The notes beneath the pieces are model-generated. The model was given only the letters and a program-made list of their open reading frames with translations. It did not search any database and had not been told where the DNA came from. Below, piece by piece: positions 35,899 through 46,253 of a stretch of DNA of 64,000 bases (the stretch's first letter is position 1; each line of letters opens with the position of its first letter). Location of the stretch: the sequence record OM982647; one strand, 5' to 3'. The position numbers and the translations under genes were made by a program. The DNA is from Escherichia phage ST2.

Positions 35899-35927
35899 TA
35901 GTATCACACATCCATGTGTTTGTAAAC
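35899..35927 (-). promoter_or_regulatory. T4 early-type promoter for the 97-aa ORF
   Basis: Minus-strand GTTTAC (35922-35927, overlapping alt stop) - 17 bp - TGnATACTAT. Confidence 0.6.
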
Positions 35928-38014
35928 TATCCTTGGACAAATTTAAACGGAACTGATTCTAAATCCATTAAAGATGCTAACAATTTCAAACCTTTAGGTG
36001 CACTAGTTTTTTCTACAAATGAGGAGAACGATACCGGCTCATCTGATTCGATTTCACCCGCCATAGCAACCACCTCGCCTGTTTCCATGAGAACATCGCC
36101 GTCGTAAATGACAGCTTCATCCAACTGGTCCGAGGACATGACTTCAGCTTGAATAAATTTAAGGTTGGATTCTAAACCTGCACCGGTGTCAGATGACGCA
36201 TCTGTAATTTTATTTATCTGCAAGAGAATGCCTCTAGGCAAAATAATTTCTTGCTCATTAGGGTGATTACTCAACTGTCCTGGATAAATCACGTTAACTT
36301 TATGGGCGCCATCAATAGCCCATCCAACGTTAACACGGATTTGTTCTGGTGCATGCATAGCTGTTCTTACTTGACTAGGAGAAATGGTAACACCTTCGTC
36401 ATTATTGTCAATGTTAAGCTCTTTGCGAACTTCTTCAGGAGCAAGTCCAAGGGCAACGTTCTCTTTAAACCCGCCGAAAATAATAGGAGCTAGTGAAGTG
36501 GAAACATAGTTTCTGAAGTAGAATACCTTATTTTTAACCATTGCTTCGTAAATAGGCATTCTGATAGACTGAGCTCTATATAACGTTAGTCCTTCAGGTA
36601 AACGGTCTCCATTTAAAAACGCCGAATCAAGACCATCAATAGCGCGTTTAACTTCATCTTCATCCGCAACATCGTAAAAATCTGGTTTATAACGACCTAA
36701 CAACATATTATTGATATCGGTATACGCAGAAGAGGCATATTCACGAATAGCTCGTTTTTCAGCAACAGAGTATTGTTTAGGGTCCCGATTCATTGTTATA
36801 TTAAAGGTGCCTCTAGCCGATTCTCGTGCATAAGTATACATCACATTAGACAAGAACGCTGATTTACGTTGTTTCCAAGTTTTTTCAGATACTTCAGCTA
36901 AAACATCGTCGGCCAGTTGGAAATTATCACGTCTAAAATCTTCAAACCATTCGTCTTTAATAGAGTCTGCAATTTCGTTTGCAGCTTCAACAAAAGCAGC
37001 TAATGCTTTAACAGATGTTGTTTTTTCAGTTTTAATTTTCTTAGCAAACTTTTCTAAAGTTGGCTTAATAACACTACCATAAGAAACTTCATCAGCAAAT
37101 CTAAAGGATTCATCAATACGATTATAAATCTTATTTTCGATATCAGCAACTAAAGTGCCTTTTGCTGTGGATGATGCTTGGGCTAGTACGATTTCATATG
37201 CTTCAGGAAGTAATTCGGCTGTAGCCGGGCCACTAACTTCTTTAGCAGAATTTTCGTATTTCTGGAATAACTCACCTTCTTGGCGGTCAGCTTCTAAAGA
37301 TTGGCTTGCGGCAATAGCGCGCCGAGAAATTTTAGTACGAGCAATAACAGGCTTATCTTTACGTTTTTCTTCTACAGCAGCAATAGAACCAGCGATAGCC
37401 GTTTCTTTGGTGACCTTTTCGCCAGTCTTTTTACTCACATAAACTTCGCCAACATCAGAATCTACTTTCGTGTACAACTCTGTGTTAATGTTAGGGATGC
37501 CTTTAATATCTTCAATGTTGGCATTTTTACGAACCATCATCACATAGGTGTGTTTACCTGTGAATTGATACATTGCCGACAATACTTTAAAACGACCACC
37601 GGTTTTAGTAGAAACTAAACGAGCAAGAAGAGTTTGAAGTTGTTGTCCGCGTCCTTTCAATTTCTTGGTAGGGAATCTGAACAGAACCGCGTCCATACGA
37701 AGAGCTTTAACCTGTTCATATACTGTATTGAAAATGGTGTTGATTGCATCAATAGGAGCAGGACCAAGACCGTTTTTCAATTCAGCGAGATTACCCTTTT
37801 CAGACAGACTCATAATAACGACATGAGCATATTTGTCGCCAAGTTTAACTTGTTTTACAGCATCGCCTTCAGAAAGGTAAGAGAATAAGCGAACTACGAT
37901 GTTTGTATCGATATCACCAATTTTCCAGACTTGTGGAACTTTAGCTTTAGGGTTCAAATTGACGACAGGAAGACTGCCTTCAGATTCAAACACTTCATTT
38001 AATTGTTCAGACAT
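35927..38014 (-). CDS. alt: Alt ADP-ribosyltransferase (virion-packaged, modifies host RNA polymerase)
   Basis: 695 aa (T4 Alt is 682 aa); position 54-alt-30 as in T4. Confidence 0.92.
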   Translation of the reverse strand: MSEQLNEVFESEGSLPVVNLNPKAKVPQVWKIGDIDTNIVVRLFSYLSEGDAVKQVKLGDKYAHVVIMSLSEKGNLAELKNGLGPAPIDAINTIFNTVYEQVKALRMDAVLFRFPTKKLKGRGQQLQTLLARLVSTKTGGRFKVLSAMYQFTGKHTYVMMVRKNANIEDIKGIPNINTELYTKVDSDVGEVYVSKKTGEKVTKETAIAGSIAAVEEKRKDKPVIARTKISRRAIAASQSLEADRQEGELFQKYENSAKEVSGPATAELLPEAYEIVLAQASSTAKGTLVADIENKIYNRIDESFRFADEVSYGSVIKPTLEKFAKKIKTEKTTSVKALAAFVEAANEIADSIKDEWFEDFRRDNFQLADDVLAEVSEKTWKQRKSAFLSNVMYTYARESARGTFNITMNRDPKQYSVAEKRAIREYASSAYTDINNMLLGRYKPDFYDVADEDEVKRAIDGLDSAFLNGDRLPEGLTLYRAQSIRMPIYEAMVKNKVFYFRNYVSTSLAPIIFGGFKENVALGLAPEEVRKELNIDNNDEGVTISPSQVRTAMHAPEQIRVNVGWAIDGAHKVNVIYPGQLSNHPNEQEIILPRGILLQINKITDASSDTGAGLESNLKFIQAEVMSSDQLDEAVIYDGDVLMETGEVVAMAGEIESDEPVSFSSFVEKTSAPKGLKLLASLMDLESVPFKFVQG

Positions 38015-38054
38015 AGTGTTTTCCTTTTAGTAATAATTTATATTTATGCCAAAA

Positions 38055-38070
38055 AGAGCCCGAAGGCTCT
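38055..38070 (-). terminator. UUCG-tetraloop stem-loop upstream of alt
   Basis: Minus strand AGAGCC-UUCG-GGCUCU followed by U-rich stretch, overlapping the stop of the small ORF downstream of gene 30. Confidence 0.5.
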
Positions 38071-38258
38071 TAATCCACAATCGGGAGCAAAGTACGATAA
38101 ACTTCAAAATTAGGGCCTTTTTCGTACCCATTAACGTTATCTACGAAAACCCGATACGAATTTTCATTAGGAAAATCTAATATAATCTGAGAGCAAGAGG
38201 TGGAAACATCTCCACCATCCTTCTTAGCTACAATAACTGTTTCTAAATAAGCTTTCAT
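38070..38258 (-). CDS. hypothetical small protein (62 aa) between gene 30 and alt
   Basis: ORF-track frame 38070..38279 overlaps gene 30; first ATG is at 38258, overlapping the ligase stop as TAATG; weak ribosome-binding site. Confidence 0.35.
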   Translation of the reverse strand: MKAYLETVIVAKKDGGDVSTSCSQIILDFPNENSYRVFVDNVNGYEKGPNFEVYRTLLPIVD

Positions 38259-39751
38259 TATAAACCTGTCTGGGACCACGGTCCAAATACGTCTTCAAAT
38301 GAATCCGCTTCTGTTTTATCAAAACGGAACCCTTTAATAATTGGAAGGAAAATACCTACAGTACCTTCACGGCCTTTAGAATGAACCCAACCATTACATT
38401 CACAATCAGCGATACGTCCAATTAATTTACCTTCACGAGCTTCGGTCATTAATCGTTCACGGTCTAAATCATGACGCTCGTCTAAAGGAATAAGAACCTT
38501 TACACCATCAACTGTTTTATGAGTTGTATCTTTAAAACCTGAACCACAATCGGTTGTAATACGACGACAACGTGATACGAGTTCGACACCACCTAATTTG
38601 TTAGGGTCTTTAGAGTGTTCATAGTATCCTACAACTTCTAAAGCGATATCAATAACTTCTTTAAATTTAATTAGATTCTTAGAGCGTTTGTTTTCCCAAT
38701 ATGAATCACGGTTTTTAAGGATAATACCTTCAAGACCTTGGTCAACATATTTTTTATAAACCACTTTAGCTTCGTCAAGATTACGAACTAACTGATTTTC
38801 AATTGGCTCAATTCGCTTAAAGCCTTCAGCCATATTTTCAAGAGCAGCAAAACGAACATCGTATTTCTGACCTTTAATTTTGCCGTCAGAATAGACTTCA
38901 TCTAAAGGAACATAGTCCCAGGCTTGAAGAACCATACCTTCCGCTTCTTTAGGAGAAATAGTCCCTTGAAGAGATTTATTTGCTAAACCGTTTGAAGTGC
39001 TACGGTCTGCAACTTGTACTTCTTCGGATTCTTCATTATCACCAAATAAGAACGACAGGTCATTTCCTGAGCTCACAGCCTTTTTAATATCAAATGAATG
39101 ATAAACTAATTCACCGTCGATTAAAACCCCATTAGGGTGTCTTTCACGAGCTTCTTTAGTCATTTCCATTAGTTCATCTGCTAATAGAGTAAGACCATGG
39201 TATTCATTACCGGCACGAGAAAAGAATTGAACACCATCATCGCGAACTTCAGCGAAACAACGAGCACCATCGGCTTTTAATTGAGCAAATGCAGGCCATT
39301 TAATATTTTTAGTAATCAATTTCTCATCATATGCAGATGCTAACATCTGTGGCTGCAATTGAATAAGACCAGGCCACACCTTATTCGCGATAGACACTGA
39401 AGCACCTACTTCAAGGTCGCGCATCATTACACGACGAAGGACTTCTACATCATCAGGTTTACCATCAGCGATATAACCCATGAGCTCTTTAATTGCAGCA
39501 TTACCAGTGAGTTTACGAGTGGCTAATGTGAACTCAATAAAATCCAACATGTCATCTAATTCAAGAAGACCATACGCTTGAGACCTTTCACCTGGTCCTG
39601 GCCATTTCTTAATATAATACTGGATACCACGTGCATATGTTAAACGATACACACGTTCAAGTAATTTGTTGTCCTTATTTTTCTTAAGGATTTCTTGTTT
39701 TGTTTTAGTAGAACCGATCGCAGCTATTTGGTTTAAAATATCTAAAATCAT
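38258..39751 (-). CDS. 30: ATP-dependent DNA ligase gp30
   Basis: 497 aa (T4 ligase is 487 aa); adenylation motif I K-A-D-G-A-R (LKADGARCFAEV). Confidence 0.96.
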   Translation of the reverse strand: MILDILNQIAAIGSTKTKQEILKKNKDNKLLERVYRLTYARGIQYYIKKWPGPGERSQAYGLLELDDMLDFIEFTLATRKLTGNAAIKELMGYIADGKPDDVEVLRRVMMRDLEVGASVSIANKVWPGLIQLQPQMLASAYDEKLITKNIKWPAFAQLKADGARCFAEVRDDGVQFFSRAGNEYHGLTLLADELMEMTKEARERHPNGVLIDGELVYHSFDIKKAVSSGNDLSFLFGDNEESEEVQVADRSTSNGLANKSLQGTISPKEAEGMVLQAWDYVPLDEVYSDGKIKGQKYDVRFAALENMAEGFKRIEPIENQLVRNLDEAKVVYKKYVDQGLEGIILKNRDSYWENKRSKNLIKFKEVIDIALEVVGYYEHSKDPNKLGGVELVSRCRRITTDCGSGFKDTTHKTVDGVKVLIPLDERHDLDRERLMTEAREGKLIGRIADCECNGWVHSKGREGTVGIFLPIIKGFRFDKTEADSFEDVFGPWSQTGL

Positions 39752-40017
39752 TTGATGTCCTCGATTTTGGTTACGGTTCTATTATAAGCCACTTCATCTA
39801 GAAGCGATTTCAGCGTTTTCTGATAAGTGGTAATCCGTTTACCGAGTCCTTCAACGTAGTATTCTGAAATGTAGATGAACCCTTGTTCAACACACTCTTT
39901 AAATATTTCTGCGTCTTTTACTGAACGAAACAATGGCCAGTCTCGAAAGAACATGTTAACGTGACCGTAGTCACGCGTTGTGTTTTTACCATCTGTAATA
40001 TCATGAACTACAAACAT
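39748..40017 (-). CDS. hypothetical protein (89 aa), 30.1-position
   Basis: ATG start with AAGGGA Shine-Dalgarno; overlaps gene 30 start by 4 nt. Confidence 0.6.
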   Translation of the reverse strand: MFVVHDITDGKNTTRDYGHVNMFFRDWPLFRSVKDAEIFKECVEQGFIYISEYYVEGLGKRITTYQKTLKSLLDEVAYNRTVTKIEDIK

Positions 40018-40026
40018 AAGTATCCC

Positions 40027-40851
40027 TTAACAATTTATAGACCAAGTCCATTTAGACGAATCTAAAGGAAAGTTTTGAATCGTCCACCACGGCCGCATAT
40101 CGGTTGGTCCTGGGGTTCGCCAGGTATATGGAGTACGTGTTGTCGAGGGGCCACCAATTTGATTAGGCCATGCACCTGGACTTGTTGCACCAGATTCTTT
40201 AAGCAAATCCGCCAATCGTTTTAAAAGGTCTTCACGATCTGAATCTGAATTATGCTCGGGTGGAACCAAACGAGATTCAATATCATCCCACGTGTGTACA
40301 CGTTGTGCAGTGCGAGGAATATCATCACGTTCACCACGAGCCAACCAATAAATCGGTACATTAAGAATTTCTGCCGCATGGTCACAGTGATGAGCTAAAT
40401 CGTCAACGTAACAAATCACGTTATATTTTGTTTTAGCTAGTTCGAATAATTGTTCCTTTGAAGAATCATGACCACACATCATTACTTCAGAGAAAGCGCC
40501 TGGGAACAAAGCGTTCAAATTAAATTGTCTATTCAATCGAGCATCAATTGAATCACCTAGCGCCGTCACGGCTACAAAATTATAGTCTTCTTTTAGTTTA
40601 TTGATAACTCGAAGAGCATCCGAATAAGGCGCTAAGTAACGAATAAAATCAGAGCGATTATATTTTTCTATTAATTGTTTACCAAGGTTATCGTCGGTAT
40701 TGAACAGTTTACCAGGAGAAATAAATTTTTCGTCCTGAATCATTTTTAAAATATGTTCTAATGGAAGATTATATTTTTGGGCAAAATAAGGAAGCCCAGA
40801 TTGCCAGCTTAAACATACACCATCAATATCAGTCAAAATAGTAGGTTTCAT
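40027..40851 (-). CDS. HAD-superfamily hydrolase (5'-nucleotidase-like) with unusual Trp/Pro-rich C-terminal extension
   Basis: N-terminal HAD motif I (ILTDIDGVCLSW, DxDG), later aspartate-containing motif (VICYVDDL); C-terminal ~55 aa is W/P/T-rich and encoded by a locally GC-rich stretch. Confidence 0.75.
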   Translation of the reverse strand: MKPTILTDIDGVCLSWQSGLPYFAQKYNLPLEHILKMIQDEKFISPGKLFNTDDNLGKQLIEKYNRSDFIRYLAPYSDALRVINKLKEDYNFVAVTALGDSIDARLNRQFNLNALFPGAFSEVMMCGHDSSKEQLFELAKTKYNVICYVDDLAHHCDHAAEILNVPIYWLARGERDDIPRTAQRVHTWDDIESRLVPPEHNSDSDREDLLKRLADLLKESGATSPGAWPNQIGGPSTTRTPYTWRTPGPTDMRPWWTIQNFPLDSSKWTWSINC

Positions 40852-41300
40852 AAAGAGTCTCTTAATAGGTTTAACACATCAATAAATTCAACTTCGGTTA
40901 GTATTGTATCATCTTTTGTTAGGTGGCTGGCCATGCTGTGCTTCAAAATTTTTCCTTTAGAGGCTTGTAATGCATCACGAAACCCCTTGTTTTGGATCGC
41001 GGCTTCAAAATATGCATTTGTATATAATTCTTTCCACGCTTCGGAGTATCTTGAAAATGGAACTCCTAACCAGAAGAGAGTCCCACGGTCCTGAGCTCTT
41101 GCATAAGACCTTCCAGCTTGCTGTGCAGCCAATCCAGACAACCTGAATATACGTCTTTGTTGTTCAACATTTTTCACCTTACATCCTTGGAGAAATCCTT
41201 CAAGTCCTCCGAATTGAATACCATCCATGACGAAAGGCCATTGGGCGAAGTTACTTAATGCACATGACGGCCATGGAAAATTGCTTCTGATTTCAATCAT
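40848..41300 (-). CDS. NADAR / YbiA-like (DUF1768) domain protein
   Basis: 150 aa; ALSNFAQWPFVMDGIQFGGLEGFLQGCKV aligns with the E. coli YbiA core DFSNFAAWPIKVDGKTWPTSEHYFQAQKF. Confidence 0.75.
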   Translation of the reverse strand: MIEIRSNFPWPSCALSNFAQWPFVMDGIQFGGLEGFLQGCKVKNVEQQRRIFRLSGLAAQQAGRSYARAQDRGTLFWLGVPFSRYSEAWKELYTNAYFEAAIQNKGFRDALQASKGKILKHSMASHLTKDDTILTEVEFIDVLNLLRDSL

Positions 41301-41491
41301 AGTCTTTTAAGGCTTTTGATAACTTCTAATTCAGAACTCATGCGAACGTCTTCAGTTCCATCGACCCATAGGACGGTGTAGGCTTCTTTAATTTGAGTAT
41401 TACCTAATTTAAAAGCAGGTAGAACCTTTGAAATCATTCCAGGAATACCTATGCCTTTTAACTGGACTGTTTGCGATAAAAATAGTTGCAT
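41297..41491 (-). CDS. hypothetical protein (64 aa)
   Basis: ATG-initiated ORF overlapping neighbours by 1-4 nt in the early operon. Confidence 0.5.
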   Translation of the reverse strand: MQLFLSQTVQLKGIGIPGMISKVLPAFKLGNTQIKEAYTVLWVDGTEDVRMSSELEVIKSLKRL

Positions 41492-41778
41492 TAGAACCTC
41501 ATCTGGAACCCGTGTGATTTAACATTACCACCGTAGATGTCAGAGGTATTGACTTCACGGGCGGCACTATGGACGATATTGATATCGTGGTTGAGCTTAG
41601 TGATTGCTAAGGTATCACGGCCGTTAACAGTACGGAATTCTACCGGGCACACAACATCAGCATAAGCCTTAATAGATTCACGAGTAGGTTGTTTGTCGGC
41701 AGGAACGTCTTTACCTGCTTTAGAGAAAACAACTTCACAGAAATTTTTACGAGTATCGAAATAAGTGGTCATAAACAT
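41491..41778 (-). CDS. hypothetical protein (95 aa)
   Basis: ORF-track frame 41491..41811; the first 11 codons are the terminator hairpin at 41794-41809, so start set at ATG 41778 preceded by GAGGAAAA. Confidence 0.55.
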   Translation of the reverse strand: MFMTTYFDTRKNFCEVVFSKAGKDVPADKQPTRESIKAYADVVCPVEFRTVNGRDTLAITKLNHDINIVHSAAREVNTSDIYGGNVKSHGFQMRF

Positions 41779-41793
41779 AATATTTTCCTCAAA

Positions 41794-41809
41794 GGAGGCC
41801 GAAGCCTCC
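41794..41809 (-). terminator. UUCG-tetraloop stem-loop after the 121-aa ORF
   Basis: Minus strand GGAGGC-UUCG-GCCUCC followed by UUUGAGG; 10 nt after the stop at 41819. Confidence 0.5.
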
Positions 41810-41818
41810 ATTTTAAGA

Positions 41819-42184
41819 TTAGATATCGAATTCGTTAAGAACTACATCAAAGATTGCTTCGAGATGTTCAGGTTTAGCTCGGTTACTCAGGATATGACGA
41901 ATCCAAGTTTTAACCAGAAGTTTACGATTAACACCATTCCAGCAAGGATGAGTACCTAAATCACGTTGACGGAAATCGTCATCTAATGCAATTTTGAAGT
42001 TGGAACCTTCCATCGTGATTGAAACCGTGATGCCGTTTTCAAATCGCATATAAACGTAATTAGGAGTCATGCACTGTTCGATTTCACAAACTGAACCGTT
42101 ATTATGCTTCCATAAGCAAATAACTTCAGAAGAACCAGCGATACCGTTAGAAACATATTTACGTTCGAAGTTGGTGTAGTTCAT
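41819..42184 (-). CDS. hypothetical early protein (121 aa)
   Basis: ATG start with GGAGAA Shine-Dalgarno and own early promoter; no recognisable family. Confidence 0.6.
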   Translation of the reverse strand: MNYTNFERKYVSNGIAGSSEVICLWKHNNGSVCEIEQCMTPNYVYMRFENGITVSITMEGSNFKIALDDDFRQRDLGTHPCWNGVNRKLLVKTWIRHILSNRAKPEHLEAIFDVVLNEFDI

Positions 42185-42225
42185 TTTATTCTCCAGATGT
42201 TTAAGTTGTTTGTTGGTACAGGTCT

Positions 42226-42254
42226 ATAATAACATAACCTGTACCAAAGTAAAC
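42226..42254 (-). promoter_or_regulatory. T4 early-type promoter for the 121-aa ORF, -10 bracketed by a 9-bp inverted repeat
   Basis: Minus-strand GTTTAC (42249-42254) - 17 bp - TGTTATTAT; GGTACAGGT (42215-42223) and ACCTGTACC (42237-42245) flank the -10. Confidence 0.6.
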
Positions 42255-42258
42255 ATTT

Positions 42259-42630
42259 TTATTTGATTTTTGTCCACTTAGCTGAATCAATAACACCTTT
42301 TGCTTTAATCTTCTCAATTAATGACTCTGCGCGATTTCTGGCGTTTTCGTACCATACAACATCTTCAGAGTAACCAGTTTCTTCATCTTCGTAAGTTTTA
42401 GAACGAATACAGCCGTAAACTGTAGAATTCAGGCGGTAAATTTCACCAGTGAAAAAGTTTTCGATTTCGATATGATAACAAAAATCGTCTGAAGGGCCAT
42501 CAGGAGTTGTACAATAAACCACATCACCTTGAACTGAACGAACCATCCACTGTAACTCGTTAACAACTTGAGATTTATATCCATCATGGTCGCGGCATTT
42601 AATTGTAGCATTTAAATTGATAGTGTTCAT
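42259..42630 (-). CDS. hypothetical early protein (123 aa)
   Basis: ATG start with GGAGAA Shine-Dalgarno; early promoter-like sequence upstream (GTTTAC at ~42697). Confidence 0.6.
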   Translation of the reverse strand: MNTINLNATIKCRDHDGYKSQVVNELQWMVRSVQGDVVYCTTPDGPSDDFCYHIEIENFFTGEIYRLNSTVYGCIRSKTYEDEETGYSEDVVWYENARNRAESLIEKIKAKGVIDSAKWTKIK

Positions 42631-42736
42631 TTTATTCTCCGGTTGTTTTATTGATTAGGTGGTACAAGTCTATAGTAACACATCCTACAGGAGAGTAAAC
42701 ATCTTTTTAAACTTTTTCTGCCCTAAACGCACAAAA

Positions 42737-42754
42737 GGGAGACCGAAGTCTCCC
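42737..42754 (-). terminator. intrinsic terminator GGGAGAC-UUCG-GUCUCCC + U-run after the small basic protein gene
   Basis: Same 18-mer as after genes 8, 23 and 32; on the minus strand followed by UUUUGU. Confidence 0.7.
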
Positions 42755-42759
42755 TAAAA

Positions 42760-42939
42760 TTATGCAACAACCTTTCCAAAACGAGAAGCATCATCTCGAA
42801 GAACTGCACGTGCTCTGCGCATGATCTTCTCAACTGTTTGATTAATACGAGAGTTCGACCCACGCTTGTATCCAGCGCGTTTAGAGGTACCATCAACTTT
42901 CTTTTCAACTGCTTTCTTTGCTTTAGCTTGTTTTGCCAT
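42760..42939 (-). CDS. small lysine/arginine-rich protein (59 aa); not in the ORF track
   Basis: ATG 42939 with AAGAGA 8 nt upstream; MAKQAKAKKAVEKKVDGTSKRAGYKRGSNSRINQTVEKIMRRARAVLRDDASRFGKVVA; TAA at 42760-42762 followed 5 nt later by the strong GGGAGAC terminator. The overlapping track ORF 42723..42908 is in another frame and looks non-coding. Confidence 0.5.
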   Translation of the reverse strand: MAKQAKAKKAVEKKVDGTSKRAGYKRGSNSRINQTVEKIMRRARAVLRDDASRFGKVVA

Positions 42940-43152
42940 TATAAATTCTCTTTAAATGAAAATGCAGGACTTATTGACATTGCCTGCGCAAGCCCTCAAG
43001 GGGAACATAGGTTTTGAATATTTACCGACAGGATAACCATAAACCCGTCATCATACCAACCACGACTTAGACAGATAACCTTTTTCTGACGCGTGATAGT
43101 ACAAAATACATTCAAGAGGTACACCGTAAAACTGCCGGGGTCTTAAAACTAT

Positions 43153-43170
43153 AATGATTCGCAAATCATT
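43153..43170 (-). terminator. stem-loop after rIII
   Basis: AAUGAUU-cgca-AAUCAUU, 33 nt after the rIII stop, followed on the minus strand by AUAGUUUUAAG. Confidence 0.4.
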
Positions 43171-43202
43171 AATCAGACAGTTCGACGGCTCCTCGATTTA
43201 AC

Positions 43203-43451
43203 TTACTTCAGGGTAATAACAAAATGACGTACTGCTTTACGAGCCGCAGAAGCCAAAGGCTTAGCATATTTCAGTTCATCTTTTGCTTCCAGTTCAGAGG
43301 CCAATACAGCTTGGGCAGGGTTCAGATGTTTGAAATAACGCAGGATTTCCAATGCTTCGGCTTCAACATCAATAGATGCACCGTAGTTTTCGTGACCATT
43401 ATTCCATGCGTTTCGTTGCAGTTCAAGAGCGTGTTGTAATTGTTTAATCAT
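43203..43451 (-). CDS. rIII: rIII lysis-inhibition accessory protein
   Basis: 82 aa, same length as T4 RIII (MIKQLQHALELQRNAWNNGHENYGASIDVEAEALEILRYF…). Confidence 0.93.
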   Translation of the reverse strand: MIKQLQHALELQRNAWNNGHENYGASIDVEAEALEILRYFKHLNPAQAVLASELEAKDELKYAKPLASAARKAVRHFVITLK

Positions 43452-43567
43452 TTTAAATTCTCAATTCGAGATAATATTTAGTAGCCACGTTCGTCTGAAT
43501 TTCACCTTCTTTCGACAAGTCTCTCAGTTGTAGGCTACCGCTTAGAAGAGTGTTCTCTTCATATAGT

Positions 43568-43575
43568 TATTTATA
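43568..43575 (-). promoter_or_regulatory. T4-type late promoter (minus-strand TATAAATA) upstream of rIII
   Basis: Plus-strand TATTTATA immediately after the gene 31 stop, 117 nt upstream of rIII ATG; T4 rIII has early and late transcripts. Confidence 0.55.
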
Positions 43576-43908
43576 TCACTTATAAAGACACGGAATAGCT
43601 TTATAGTGGCATGTTACGAATTTCTGTTTAATTTCTTTAGGTTGTTTAAGTCCCAAAGCCACAAATGGATGTGGAACATTTCGAATTTGTCCAACTGGTA
43701 GTGGAGTCAAATCACCGACTTCAACAAAACCTTCAGGAACATCAGGACCTACAGAATGAACTACACATAGTTCAGGAACTTCACCTTGAACACGTTTACC
43801 AATCACAAGTCCTGATTCGGTAACTTCTTCATCACCTGCTTGAGCGGGTTCAGAAACCAGAATAACATATTCACCAACAGCACGAATTGGGAGTTGTACT
43901 TCAGACAT
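43576..43908 (-). CDS. 31: head-assembly co-chaperonin gp31 (GroES analogue)
   Basis: 110 aa; [61 protein letters not shown]… is near-identical to T4 gp31. Confidence 0.96.
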
Positions 43909-43938
43909 CTTATTTCCTTGTTGTTTGACGATAGATTA

Positions 43939-43964
43939 ATAATACCATACTATTCGTAAAGCAT
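43939..43964 (-). promoter_or_regulatory. middle promoter (MotA box + -10) upstream of gene 31
   Basis: Minus strand aTGCTTTAc - 12 nt - TATTAT, ~30 nt upstream of the gene 31 ATG. Confidence 0.55.
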
Positions 43965-43965
43965 A

Positions 43966-44262
43966 TTACATAAGAAGCAAACGTTCAACCGGAGTACCAT
44001 CAACCGAAATTACTTTATCAAGGCGGAAAGAACGCCACTGACCTAACTCGGTATCGAATGCTCGAACTGATTCACGAGGTTCATAACGAACTTCTGTTGC
44101 CGGATTGTTATTTTCATATTTGACTTCAAGTTCATCGCGCGAAGCAAACATAGTGCGTACCTCGCCGTTAGCCTTTTCAAATACAACACAATGAACGCCT
44201 ACAGACAGAATAGTTTTAATACGTTCACGAAGAACCATAGTTTCTTGTTCAGTTAAAATCAT
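43966..44262 (-). CDS. hypothetical protein (98 aa), 31.1-position
   Basis: ORF-track start 44274 is GTG inside cd; first ATG 44262 lies 1 nt after the cd stop (TAATATG). Confidence 0.6.
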   Translation of the reverse strand: MILTEQETMVLRERIKTILSVGVHCVVFEKANGEVRTMFASRDELEVKYENNNPATEVRYEPRESVRAFDTELGQWRSFRLDKVISVDGTPVERLLLM

Positions 44263-44263
44263 A

Positions 44264-44845
44264 TTATTCACCACAAAAGTTTCGAATTTGTTCCCAATTC
44301 AGAGAACGAAGATTATTACGAGAGTACTGAATTACTTCAATACCAGCTTGTTTTAGAATGTCGGCCCAATTTTCAGGAGATCTGTCATATAATTCTGCGT
44401 ATACAACCTTTTTAATACCTGACTGCGTAATAGCTTTAGTGCAATCAGGACACGGAGAAAGCGTAGTATATAACGTAGCACCTTCAATAGAATTACCTTT
44501 ACGAGCTGCAAACAAAATTGCATTCAATTCCGCATGGATTTCATTATTAGCAGACCATGCACTATGAGCGGCCCGATGTTCTTTAGCCAAAACAAAATTA
44601 TCCACCCGTCCAAATGCTGTAGTGCCTTCTTTATGCCCAGCAACGATGACCGGGCTTGGTTTATTCTTCAACCAACCGTTTTCGGATGCATGTTCGCAAC
44701 AGTTTGTACCACCTGAAGGAGAGCCATTATAACCTGTAGAAATAATGCGTCCATCTTTTTCAATGACGGCACCAACTTTCCATGAACAACATTTTGATTC
44801 TTGAGAAATCAGATATGCAATCTGAAGGTATGTGCTAGCTTTCAT
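44264..44845 (-). CDS. cd: dCMP deaminase
   Basis: 193 aa, same length as T4 Cd; zinc-binding deaminase motifs HAELNAI and SPCPDCTKAI. Confidence 0.95.
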   Translation of the reverse strand: MKASTYLQIAYLISQESKCCSWKVGAVIEKDGRIISTGYNGSPSGGTNCCEHASENGWLKNKPSPVIVAGHKEGTTAFGRVDNFVLAKEHRAAHSAWSANNEIHAELNAILFAARKGNSIEGATLYTTLSPCPDCTKAITQSGIKKVVYAELYDRSPENWADILKQAGIEVIQYSRNNLRSLNWEQIRNFCGE

Positions 44846-45837
44846 TATTGAACCTTATTAATATAAGTTAACAGCTCTTTAGTTTGTTCCCAACTGATGC
44901 ACGCATCGGTAATGGAAACGCCATAGGACATATTATCAGAAATTTTTTGATTTCCTTCATGTAGGAATGATTCTATCATAATTCCTTTGACCAAATCATT
45001 AGCTGCTAAATTTTTACCAATACCAATTTGATTGCTATAATGCCCATCAGCGTTTGCATGGCTACAGTCAACCATTACATAATGATTCAGACCTACTGCC
45101 CTTGCTTTGTTAGAAGCTTCTTGAATATCAGAAGAATGATAGTTCGGGCCGTTGGTCCCGCCACGCAATACGATATGCGTATTCTGATTACCTTCAGCTT
45201 CAACAATGCCTACAGTACCATCGACGTCCATACCCATATACCGATGAGGCCAGGCGGCACTATACATCGCGTCTGTAGCTACTTTAATAGAACCATTGGT
45301 TGCGTTCTTGAAGCCTACGCACATCGGTAGACCTGAAGCAATTTCACGATGTGTCTGACTTTCAGTCGTACGGGCGCCAATAGCAACCCATGAGAAAATA
45401 CCAGAAAGATACTTAATCGTGAATGGGTCTAATACTTCAGTTGCTAATGGAAGTCCCATACGTAGAAGTTTACGACACAATGTTCGTGCAACTATAAGAC
45501 CGTGGTTCATATCAAAACTTCCGTCAAGATATGGATCATTTACAAGACCTTTCCAACCTACGGTAGTTCGAGGCTTTTCAAAATAAACGCGCATCACTAA
45601 CAGAACATTAGGAAGACGAGTTTGAAGTTCAGCCAGACGTTTGCCGTATTCAACAGCAGCAATAGGGTCATGAATTGAACAAGGACCTACAACAATAAGT
45701 TTGCGTGGGTCTTCACCATTCATAATCGAATTAACTTGTTCGCGATGAGAAGCCACTTGTGATGCGTAAGCTTCCGACAAAGGAATAATCTCAGCCAGTT
45801 CTTTTGGAGAAATAAGTTTTCCGACGACAGGTAACAT
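44845..45837 (-). CDS. 3-deoxy-D-arabino-heptulosonate 7-phosphate (DAHP) synthase, class I-alpha (AroG/AroF/AroH-like)
   Basis: 330 aa with the DAHP synthase signature blocks GPCSIHD, VYFEKPRTTVGWKG, IGARTTESQTHRE, HIVLRGG, IESFLHEGNQ, ITDACISWE; AAGGA Shine-Dalgarno 6 nt before ATG; stop overlaps cd start. Confidence 0.9.
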   Translation of the reverse strand: MLPVVGKLISPKELAEIIPLSEAYASQVASHREQVNSIMNGEDPRKLIVVGPCSIHDPIAAVEYGKRLAELQTRLPNVLLVMRVYFEKPRTTVGWKGLVNDPYLDGSFDMNHGLIVARTLCRKLLRMGLPLATEVLDPFTIKYLSGIFSWVAIGARTTESQTHREIASGLPMCVGFKNATNGSIKVATDAMYSAAWPHRYMGMDVDGTVGIVEAEGNQNTHIVLRGGTNGPNYHSSDIQEASNKARAVGLNHYVMVDCSHANADGHYSNQIGIGKNLAANDLVKGIMIESFLHEGNQKISDNMSYGVSITDACISWEQTKELLTYINKVQ

Positions 45838-45957
45838 AACAATCCTTAGGAGATATAAACAGATTCTGATTCAACAATACCTTTAACCGGATTAGACAGG
45901 CTAAGTTGGTAGTGCTCAGATTTATGACCATTCTCGATAGTAATTAGATAGCTCTCA

Positions 45958-46194
45958 TTATAGTGTTCCATATACTCGAGTTGCTTCAACAAGACCATCA
46001 CTGCCTAATTTAAGATTAGTAATTTGGTCACCATCTTTAGGATTAACGATTATGAGAAAAGAACGTGGAGATTCTTGAATAACTCGTAATGTTGCATCCT
46101 GGAAACGTTCAGATACTTTATTAATCAAAGTCTGAGCGAACTCTTTTACTTTAACATGAAATTCTTGAAGCGTGATAGGTTTTTCACTTAACAT
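45958..46194 (-). CDS. hypothetical early protein (78 aa)
   Basis: ATG start with GAGGAAAACAGA leader and early promoter upstream. Confidence 0.55.
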   Translation of the reverse strand: MLSEKPITLQEFHVKVKEFAQTLINKVSERFQDATLRVIQESPRSFLIIVNPKDGDQITNLKLGSDGLVEATRVYGTL

Positions 46195-46253
46195 TCTGTT
46201 TTCCTCATTGTGTTGGTAGAGTCATAGTATCACAACTCCACCATGTTGTAAAC

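Follow-up and report, generated by a model that had tools for sequence, protein, structure and literature searches.

The window analyzed here is the whole stretch of 64,000 nucleotides from Escherichia phage ST2 (record OM982647), a Tequatrovirus that in this region is about 97% identical to Escherichia phage vB_VIPECOMC06 and its relatives. On the minus strand, at positions 40848..41300 including the stop codon, lies an ATG-to-TGA open reading frame for 150 residues, which the first-pass annotation had placed at exactly this position. The listing of open reading frames showed it to be part of a tightly packed run of genes in the same direction. Its start codon overlaps the stop codon of a 64-residue upstream ORF (41297..41491), a homolog of T4 30.5 and not of 30.4, in an ATGA sequence at 41297..41300, and its stop codon overlaps the start of gene 30.2 in a second ATGA (40848..40851), an overlap that is the same in T4. 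Downstream on the minus strand follow gene 30.2 (40027..40851; 274 aa), gene 30.1 (39748..40017; an 89-residue DUF3045 protein), the ATP-dependent DNA ligase (38258..39751; PF01068) and alt (35927..38014; a 695-residue ADP-ribosyltransferase, PF03496). The first-pass annotation had set the ORF next to the ligase and about 3 kb from alt. The end of alt is indeed close, at 2.8 kb, but the ligase is two genes off, with 30.1 and 30.2 between.

The run had also been described as an early operon. A scan for promoters and terminators found 20 promoter-like sites, compared to 17.5 ± 4.6 in shuffled sequence, and its counts did not differ from those in the shuffles. No DarT is encoded among the neighbours, namely the 30.5-like gene, 30.2 (HAD), 30.1, the ligase and Alt, nor were riboflavin genes present nearby. 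A PADLOC scan of the ORF and three neighbours returned noise only (a Type I specificity subunit, E=0.035, 10.9 bits).

Because the product matches PF08010 (Phage_30_3) with E=9.1e-69 (230.1 bits relative to a cutoff of 36) and phrog_652 with E=3.4e-51, and because tblastn found the gene in 1510 phage records from phages of many hosts, 30.3 is, as judged from its homologs, not a chance ORF. The Pfam match spans model positions 2-138 of 138; the PHROGs family is unannotated. An exhaustive profile search collected 1385 cluster representatives of the gp30.3 family (50% identity, E<=1e-3). Among its members are also long proteins that carry the domain in duplicate or combine it with others (P0025, P0045, P0102, P0138, P0141 and others); the partners, according to Pfam, include a GDSL lipase, LGT or FtsW-like segments and leucine-rich repeats of the BspA type. 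Gene-calling fusions may account for some of these long proteins.

The first-pass annotation had called the product a NADAR/YbiA-like protein and had proposed a profile search as a check. In hmmscan against Pfam at E<=10, PF08010 was the sole return and the window protein did not match PF08719 (NADAR) directly; a scan of NCBIfam assigned no family. Kinship to YbiA emerged as profiles were added. With the single sequence, the sole match among PDB sequences was to E. coli YbiA and fell short of significance (E=0.29), aligning window residues 15-41 with YbiA 29-55 (11 of the 29 quoted positions identical). With a profile of 10 family sequences the match rose to E=8.8e-4, and YbiA was still the sole PDB match. 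A 52-member alignment (A3) did worse (YbiA E=0.75), its profile swollen to 335 positions by fusion partners. When a clean alignment (A4) of 44 single-domain gp30.3 members, reaching down to 31% identity, was compared by hhalign to 15 YbiA-type sequences plus the Phytophthora NADAR (PnNADAR), the probability was 97.8% with E=8.7e-13 over 141 columns. PF08719 was also matched, weakly, by 7 of the 52 divergent PF08010 members, and several YbiA homologs carry precomputed matches to both PF08010 and PF08719. On this sequence evidence the missing PF08719 match reflects Pfam's division of the family, not absent homology. Since Pfam hides the NADAR kinship behind PF08010, the absence of a NADAR hit, taken as a test, would wrongly refute a correct idea; the proposed profile search thus came out negative for PF08719 itself and positive for YbiA by hhalign and the family profile.

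Mapping of the catalytic residues, another of the proposed checks, gave a similar picture. The YbiA and PnNADAR sequences were taken from PDB alignments; the YbiA sequence used was 100% identical to 2b3w, and a chain offset of 2 put all eight of the PnNADAR residues named in the literature on the correct letters. The glutamate and lysine of the E..Q..K motif are both kept in the window protein. The catalytic glutamate E34 (codon 41199..41201, minus strand) aligns with T4 E36, YbiA E48 and PnNADAR E43 and is conserved in 44/44 family members, and the ADP-ribose-contacting lysine K41 (codon 41178..41180, minus strand) aligns with T4 K43, YbiA K55 and PnNADAR K50, the position being K in 39 of the 44 and R in 3. 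A third residue, H121 (codon 40938..40940, minus strand), belongs to the last of the predicted strands (residues 119-121) and is likewise conserved in 44/44, so that N17, E34, H121 and T135 are all invariant across the 44-member family.

The residue in the last strand differs by class: His marks phage NADARs, Glu the YbiA family and Asp the DarG1 type (PMC11543638, PMC11125620, PMC12945103). YbiA E125 is invariant in the YbiA alignment, while the corresponding column of the gp30.3 family is an invariant His. Because hhalign sets H121 against YbiA H126, with a gap at E125, the equivalence is good to ±1 residue by sequence, and H121 is probably the counterpart of the catalytic Glu to within one residue.

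The predicted model folds like YbiA, with two small beta-sheets flanking an alpha-helical core, and E. coli YbiA is the closest solved structure. The product is a single, core-only domain, with only about 10 residues ahead of the SNF motif. Confidence was moderate at residues 1-20 and 121-140 (pLDDT 51-79), which includes the loop after H121. The C-terminal alpha-helix (residues 136-150; 40851..40895, minus strand) is intact, modelled as a helix over residues 136-149, and residues 136-150 match T4 at 14 of 15 positions, the exception being V137/A139.

Relative to T4 gp30.3 (NC_000866, 128307..128765), 141 of 149 residues are identical without gaps (95%), and all eight substitutions fall in columns that vary in the 44-member alignment. 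Gene order around the locus is the same as in T4: both genes lie upstream of 30.2, 30.1 and the ligase and both are coupled to 30.2 by ATGA. The two proteins share the catalytic E, K and H, the C-terminal helix and a length class (150 vs 152 aa), although the N-terminus of the window protein is two residues shorter. In T4, 30.4 overlaps the start of 30.3; the window lacks 30.4 and the 30.5 homolog abuts the gene directly. The annotated T4 internal ORF 30.3' (75 aa) was considered as a hidden second product and rejected: in the window, its region (about 40943..41170, minus strand, frame +1 inside the gene) meets a stop after 34 codons, an interruption that speaks against 30.3' as a conserved gene. 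Taken together, we regard it as highly probable that the ORF is adfN, the ortholog of T4 gene 30.3, and encodes a minimal, core-only ADP-ribosylglycohydrolase of the phage branch of the NADAR superfamily.

The function of AdfN is already known from T4. Schuller et al. (2023) established NADARs as enzymes that undo the ADP-ribosylation of guanine by DarT1 and pointed out a phage class of NADARs (PMC11543638). T4 gp30.3 was then found to remove ADP-ribose from guanine, but not from thymidine, in vitro, and did not rescue uninfected cells from DarT1 toxicity (2024, PMC11125620). Johannesman et al. (2025) renamed the gene adfN and showed that its deletion abolishes plaquing of T4 and T2 on DarTG1 and that adfN in trans rescues RB69 on DarTG1 hosts (PMC11825919). 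In the same study purified T4 AdfN stripped ADP-ribose from DarT1-modified DNA and the E36A protein did not; in vivo, E36A and K43A of T4 gave partial rescue only. T4 AdfN did not associate stably with DarT1, did not affect DarTG2 and was fully effective only in T-even infections, a restriction that does not depend on DNA modification (PMC11825919). The T4 enzyme does not remove ADP-ribose from cytidine (2026, PMC12945103), and adfN is conditionally essential on DarTG1, where transposon insertions in it are lost (bioRxiv 10.1101/2025.11.20.689424). The suggestion made from the letters of the window, a counter-defence role against guanine ADP-ribosylation of the DarT type, was therefore right as far as the T4 ortholog can speak for this one; indeed, every element of that hypothesis and every check proposed for it have already been carried out on this 95% identical protein.

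Natural variation bears on whether the copy in the window is active. RB69 adfN carries a natural frameshift that drops the last 15 residues, RB69 is sensitive to DarTG1, and T4 AdfN truncated at the same point has reduced activity (PMC11825919). An intact C-terminal helix therefore matters, since the RB69 frameshift that removes it leaves the phage sensitive. All full-length Tevenvirinae alleles of adfN tested so far confer resistance to DarTG1. Gene calls for gp30.3 that are truncated or fused, 83-126 aa long (P0010, P0014, P0015, P0018, P0022), occur in public T4-like phage genomes and metagenomes, for example in phages SV76, UGJNEcP4, vB_Eco_NR1 and RPN226; they may be natural loss-of-function alleles like that of RB69, which would predict sensitivity to DarTG1. 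The RB69 frameshift and the clusters of shortened copies (86-126 aa) in public phage genomes raise the question of whether the window allele has decayed in the same way, which we consider very improbable: its reading frame runs on to the stop codon used in T4, the C-terminal helix has not been lost, the invariant residues of the family are all retained and the substitutions are confined to variable columns. As the allele is full length and keeps every conserved residue, we infer from the T4 ortholog that it is active and predict that the phage resists DarTG1.

On the mechanism shown for the T4 ortholog, AdfN would act as follows. Infection of a DarTG1 host would free the DarT1 toxin, which would use NAD+ to ADP-ribosylate guanine bases of the phage DNA and so block replication. 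AdfN, produced from the co-directional 30.x cluster, would hydrolyze the N-glycosidic bond between guanine and ADP-ribose, restoring normal DNA and releasing ADP-ribose. Its target would be the lesion and not the toxin, and it would be specific for guanine adducts, leaving the thymidine adducts made by DarT2 and cytidine adducts in place. In the active site, E34 and K41 would grip the distal ribose and the phosphates and H121 would stand in for the catalytic Glu or Asp of other NADARs. In Acinetobacter phage Konradin a putative ADP-ribose pyrophosphatase (nudE; L003:2918-3442) is encoded next to pseT, about 2.5 kb upstream of 30.3. Free ADP-ribose is the product of AdfN, and this proximity may or may not be meaningful.

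How widely this activity is directed is a separate question. The main substrate might instead be ADP-ribosylated RNA (guanine adducts in tRNA or mRNA), or the enzyme might face an ADP-ribosylating defence that is still unknown, with DarTG1 as one target of several. The authors of PMC11825919 raised other defences that ADP-ribosylate DNA or RNA as possible, and the size of the family, together with its spread over phages of many hosts, would fit such a role. We nevertheless think this unlikely, because the sole in vivo phenotype on record is specific to DarTG1 and complete, with no plaques in the absence of adfN, and no link is on record between adfN and an RNA-targeting defence that ADP-ribosylates guanine.

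The mechanism set out above for AdfN, removal of guanine adducts from DNA, has a missing component in vivo, because T4 AdfN does not rescue cells from DarT1 toxicity outside infection and reaches its full effect only when the infecting phage is a T-even. A phage "potentiating factor" for AdfN of the T4 type has been posited (PMC11825919). The neighbouring gp30.2 drew attention in this regard. It is labelled hypothetical in the databases and has no Pfam match above threshold, yet the HAD motifs D8-x-D10, K132 and D150-D151 are invariant and at least 90% of sequences keep T96. In the AF2 model pLDDT exceeds 90 over residues 1-190, and Foldseek returned 92 matches to the HAD superfamily at E<=1e-3, the tightest being 5'(3')-deoxyribonucleotidases; the protein ends in a disordered tail (residues 228-274) with a high content of Pro, Trp and Thr. 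On the basis of these motifs and this model gp30.2 is a HAD-fold hydrolase, a phosphatase resembling the deoxyribonucleotidases.

Given the ATGA coupling and the HAD fold, we considered gp30.2 as an obligatory partner of AdfN and rejected it. Gene 30.2 adjoins 30.3 in Tequatrovirus and in the Acinetobacter, Providencia and Klebsiella phages, but JSE, Aeromonas phage 31 and Rhizobium RL2RES lack it beside 30.3, as searched by tblastn over +/-6 kb. The mapping with chimeras implicated only the 3' part of 30.3 (PMC11825919), and the T4 transposon screen identified adfN for DarTG1 with 30.2 unmentioned (bioRxiv 10.1101/2025.11.20.689424). In view of this patchy co-occurrence with 30.3 and its absence from the published genetics, gp30.2 is unlikely to be the missing T-even factor. 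The broader proposal that this cluster of tightly coupled genes also encodes the potentiating factor, with gp30.2 as leading candidate, is thus one to which we attach little credence.

Alt is the other neighbour that had been linked to the gene: the first-pass annotation implied a pairing of an ADP-ribosyltransferase with an enzyme that processes ADP-ribose. Under this proposal AdfN would be a functional partner of Alt, reversing or editing its modifications or processing their products. The two genes are close and in the same orientation, and the neighbourhood of alt, ligase, 30.2 and 30.3 is retained in Acinetobacter phage Konradin and Providencia phage PSTRCR_121. However, a synteny check of six divergent phages carrying 30.3, by tblastn over +/-6 kb, found no alt around the gene in four of them (JSE, Klebsiella phiKp_1, Aeromonas phage 31 and Rhizobium RL2RES), and the alt of Konradin lies on the strand opposite to 30.3. 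In Aeromonas phage 31, 30.3 sits within a tRNA cluster and in Rhizobium RL2RES it adjoins a helicase. The alt of the window is only 41% identical to that of T4 compared to 95% for 30.3, which indicates that the two genes have had separate histories. Alt modifies arginine in proteins. The NADARs tested, in contrast, are confined to guanine N2 and do not accept even the other bases (PMC11125620, PMC12945103). Both synteny and chemistry therefore argue against Alt as a functional partner, which we consider most improbable; the proximity of alt to adfN is inherited synteny and not evidence of a functional pair.

The divergence of alt is part of a wider pattern, in that the region 35927..46200 is a mosaic relative to T4. 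Protein identity to T4 is 92-96% for 30.3, 30.7, 30.9, rIII and gp31 but only 39-72% for alt, the ligase, 30.1, 30.2, 30.5, 30.8, 31.1 and cd (30.8, 39%; 31.1, 45%; 30.1, 58%; ligase, 64%; 30.2 and 30.5, about 66%). With 41% identity to T4 Alt over its full length, the Alt-like protein is, by sequence comparison, a strongly diverged allele or a paralog. Homologs of T4 30.4, 31.2 and cd.1 were found nowhere in the 64-kb window. In the spot where T4 has cd.1, directly upstream of the dCMP deaminase gene, is a gene for a 330-residue DAHP synthase (PF00793, E=4e-75; 44845..45837, minus strand), which catalyzes the opening step in the synthesis of aromatic amino acids; one is similarly placed in Providencia phage PSTRCR_121.

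For annotation, the correct name of the gene would be adfN, a NADAR-family anti-DarT factor with DNA ADP-ribosylglycohydrolase activity, yet it is labelled "hypothetical protein" in nearly all GenBank records, that of RefSeq T4 included. The phage is predicted to form plaques on E. coli that carries DarTG1, which bears on host-range prediction for therapeutic T4-like phages.

Among known systems, the closest solved structure is that of E. coli YbiA (PDB 2b3w; PF08719, NADAR/DUF1768), about 20% identical to the window protein. The ybiA gene belongs to the host, in an operon under LexA control, and its product carries the annotation of an N-glycosidase of riboflavin intermediates (PMC11543638, PMC11125620), an annotation that might suggest a YbiA-like housekeeping enzyme that detoxifies intermediates of the riboflavin pathway. 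We find such a role for the adfN product scarcely credible: the last-strand glutamate that defines the YbiA family (E125) is a histidine in the window protein, T4 gp30.3 has been shown to free DNA of ADP-ribose and to have a defence phenotype, and riboflavin genes are absent from the neighbourhood.

The anti-DarT1 enzyme AdfN also differs from the DarG1 NADARs (the BC4488 family, with the G. lovleyi NADAR, PDB 8bat, and the E. coli C7 NADAR). The window gene is an orphan with no adjoining DarT, and the DarG1 proteins have Asp in the last strand in place of His121. They also carry an N-terminal beta-beta-alpha extension, a proposed binder of ssDNA, that is missing from the shorter window protein (150 aa vs 219); 120 of the 219 residues of 8bat align with it. 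Nor can T4 AdfN substitute for DarG1 in uninfected cells. AdfN-Bas32 and AdfN-Bas60, from T5-like phages and Vequintavirinae, are likewise phage NADARs with specificity for guanine and act against DarTG1 (PMC11825919). These two proteins, however, belong to other NADAR branches and were acquired independently, and unlike T4 AdfN they work without T-even infection, even as antitoxins in uninfected cells (PMC11825919).
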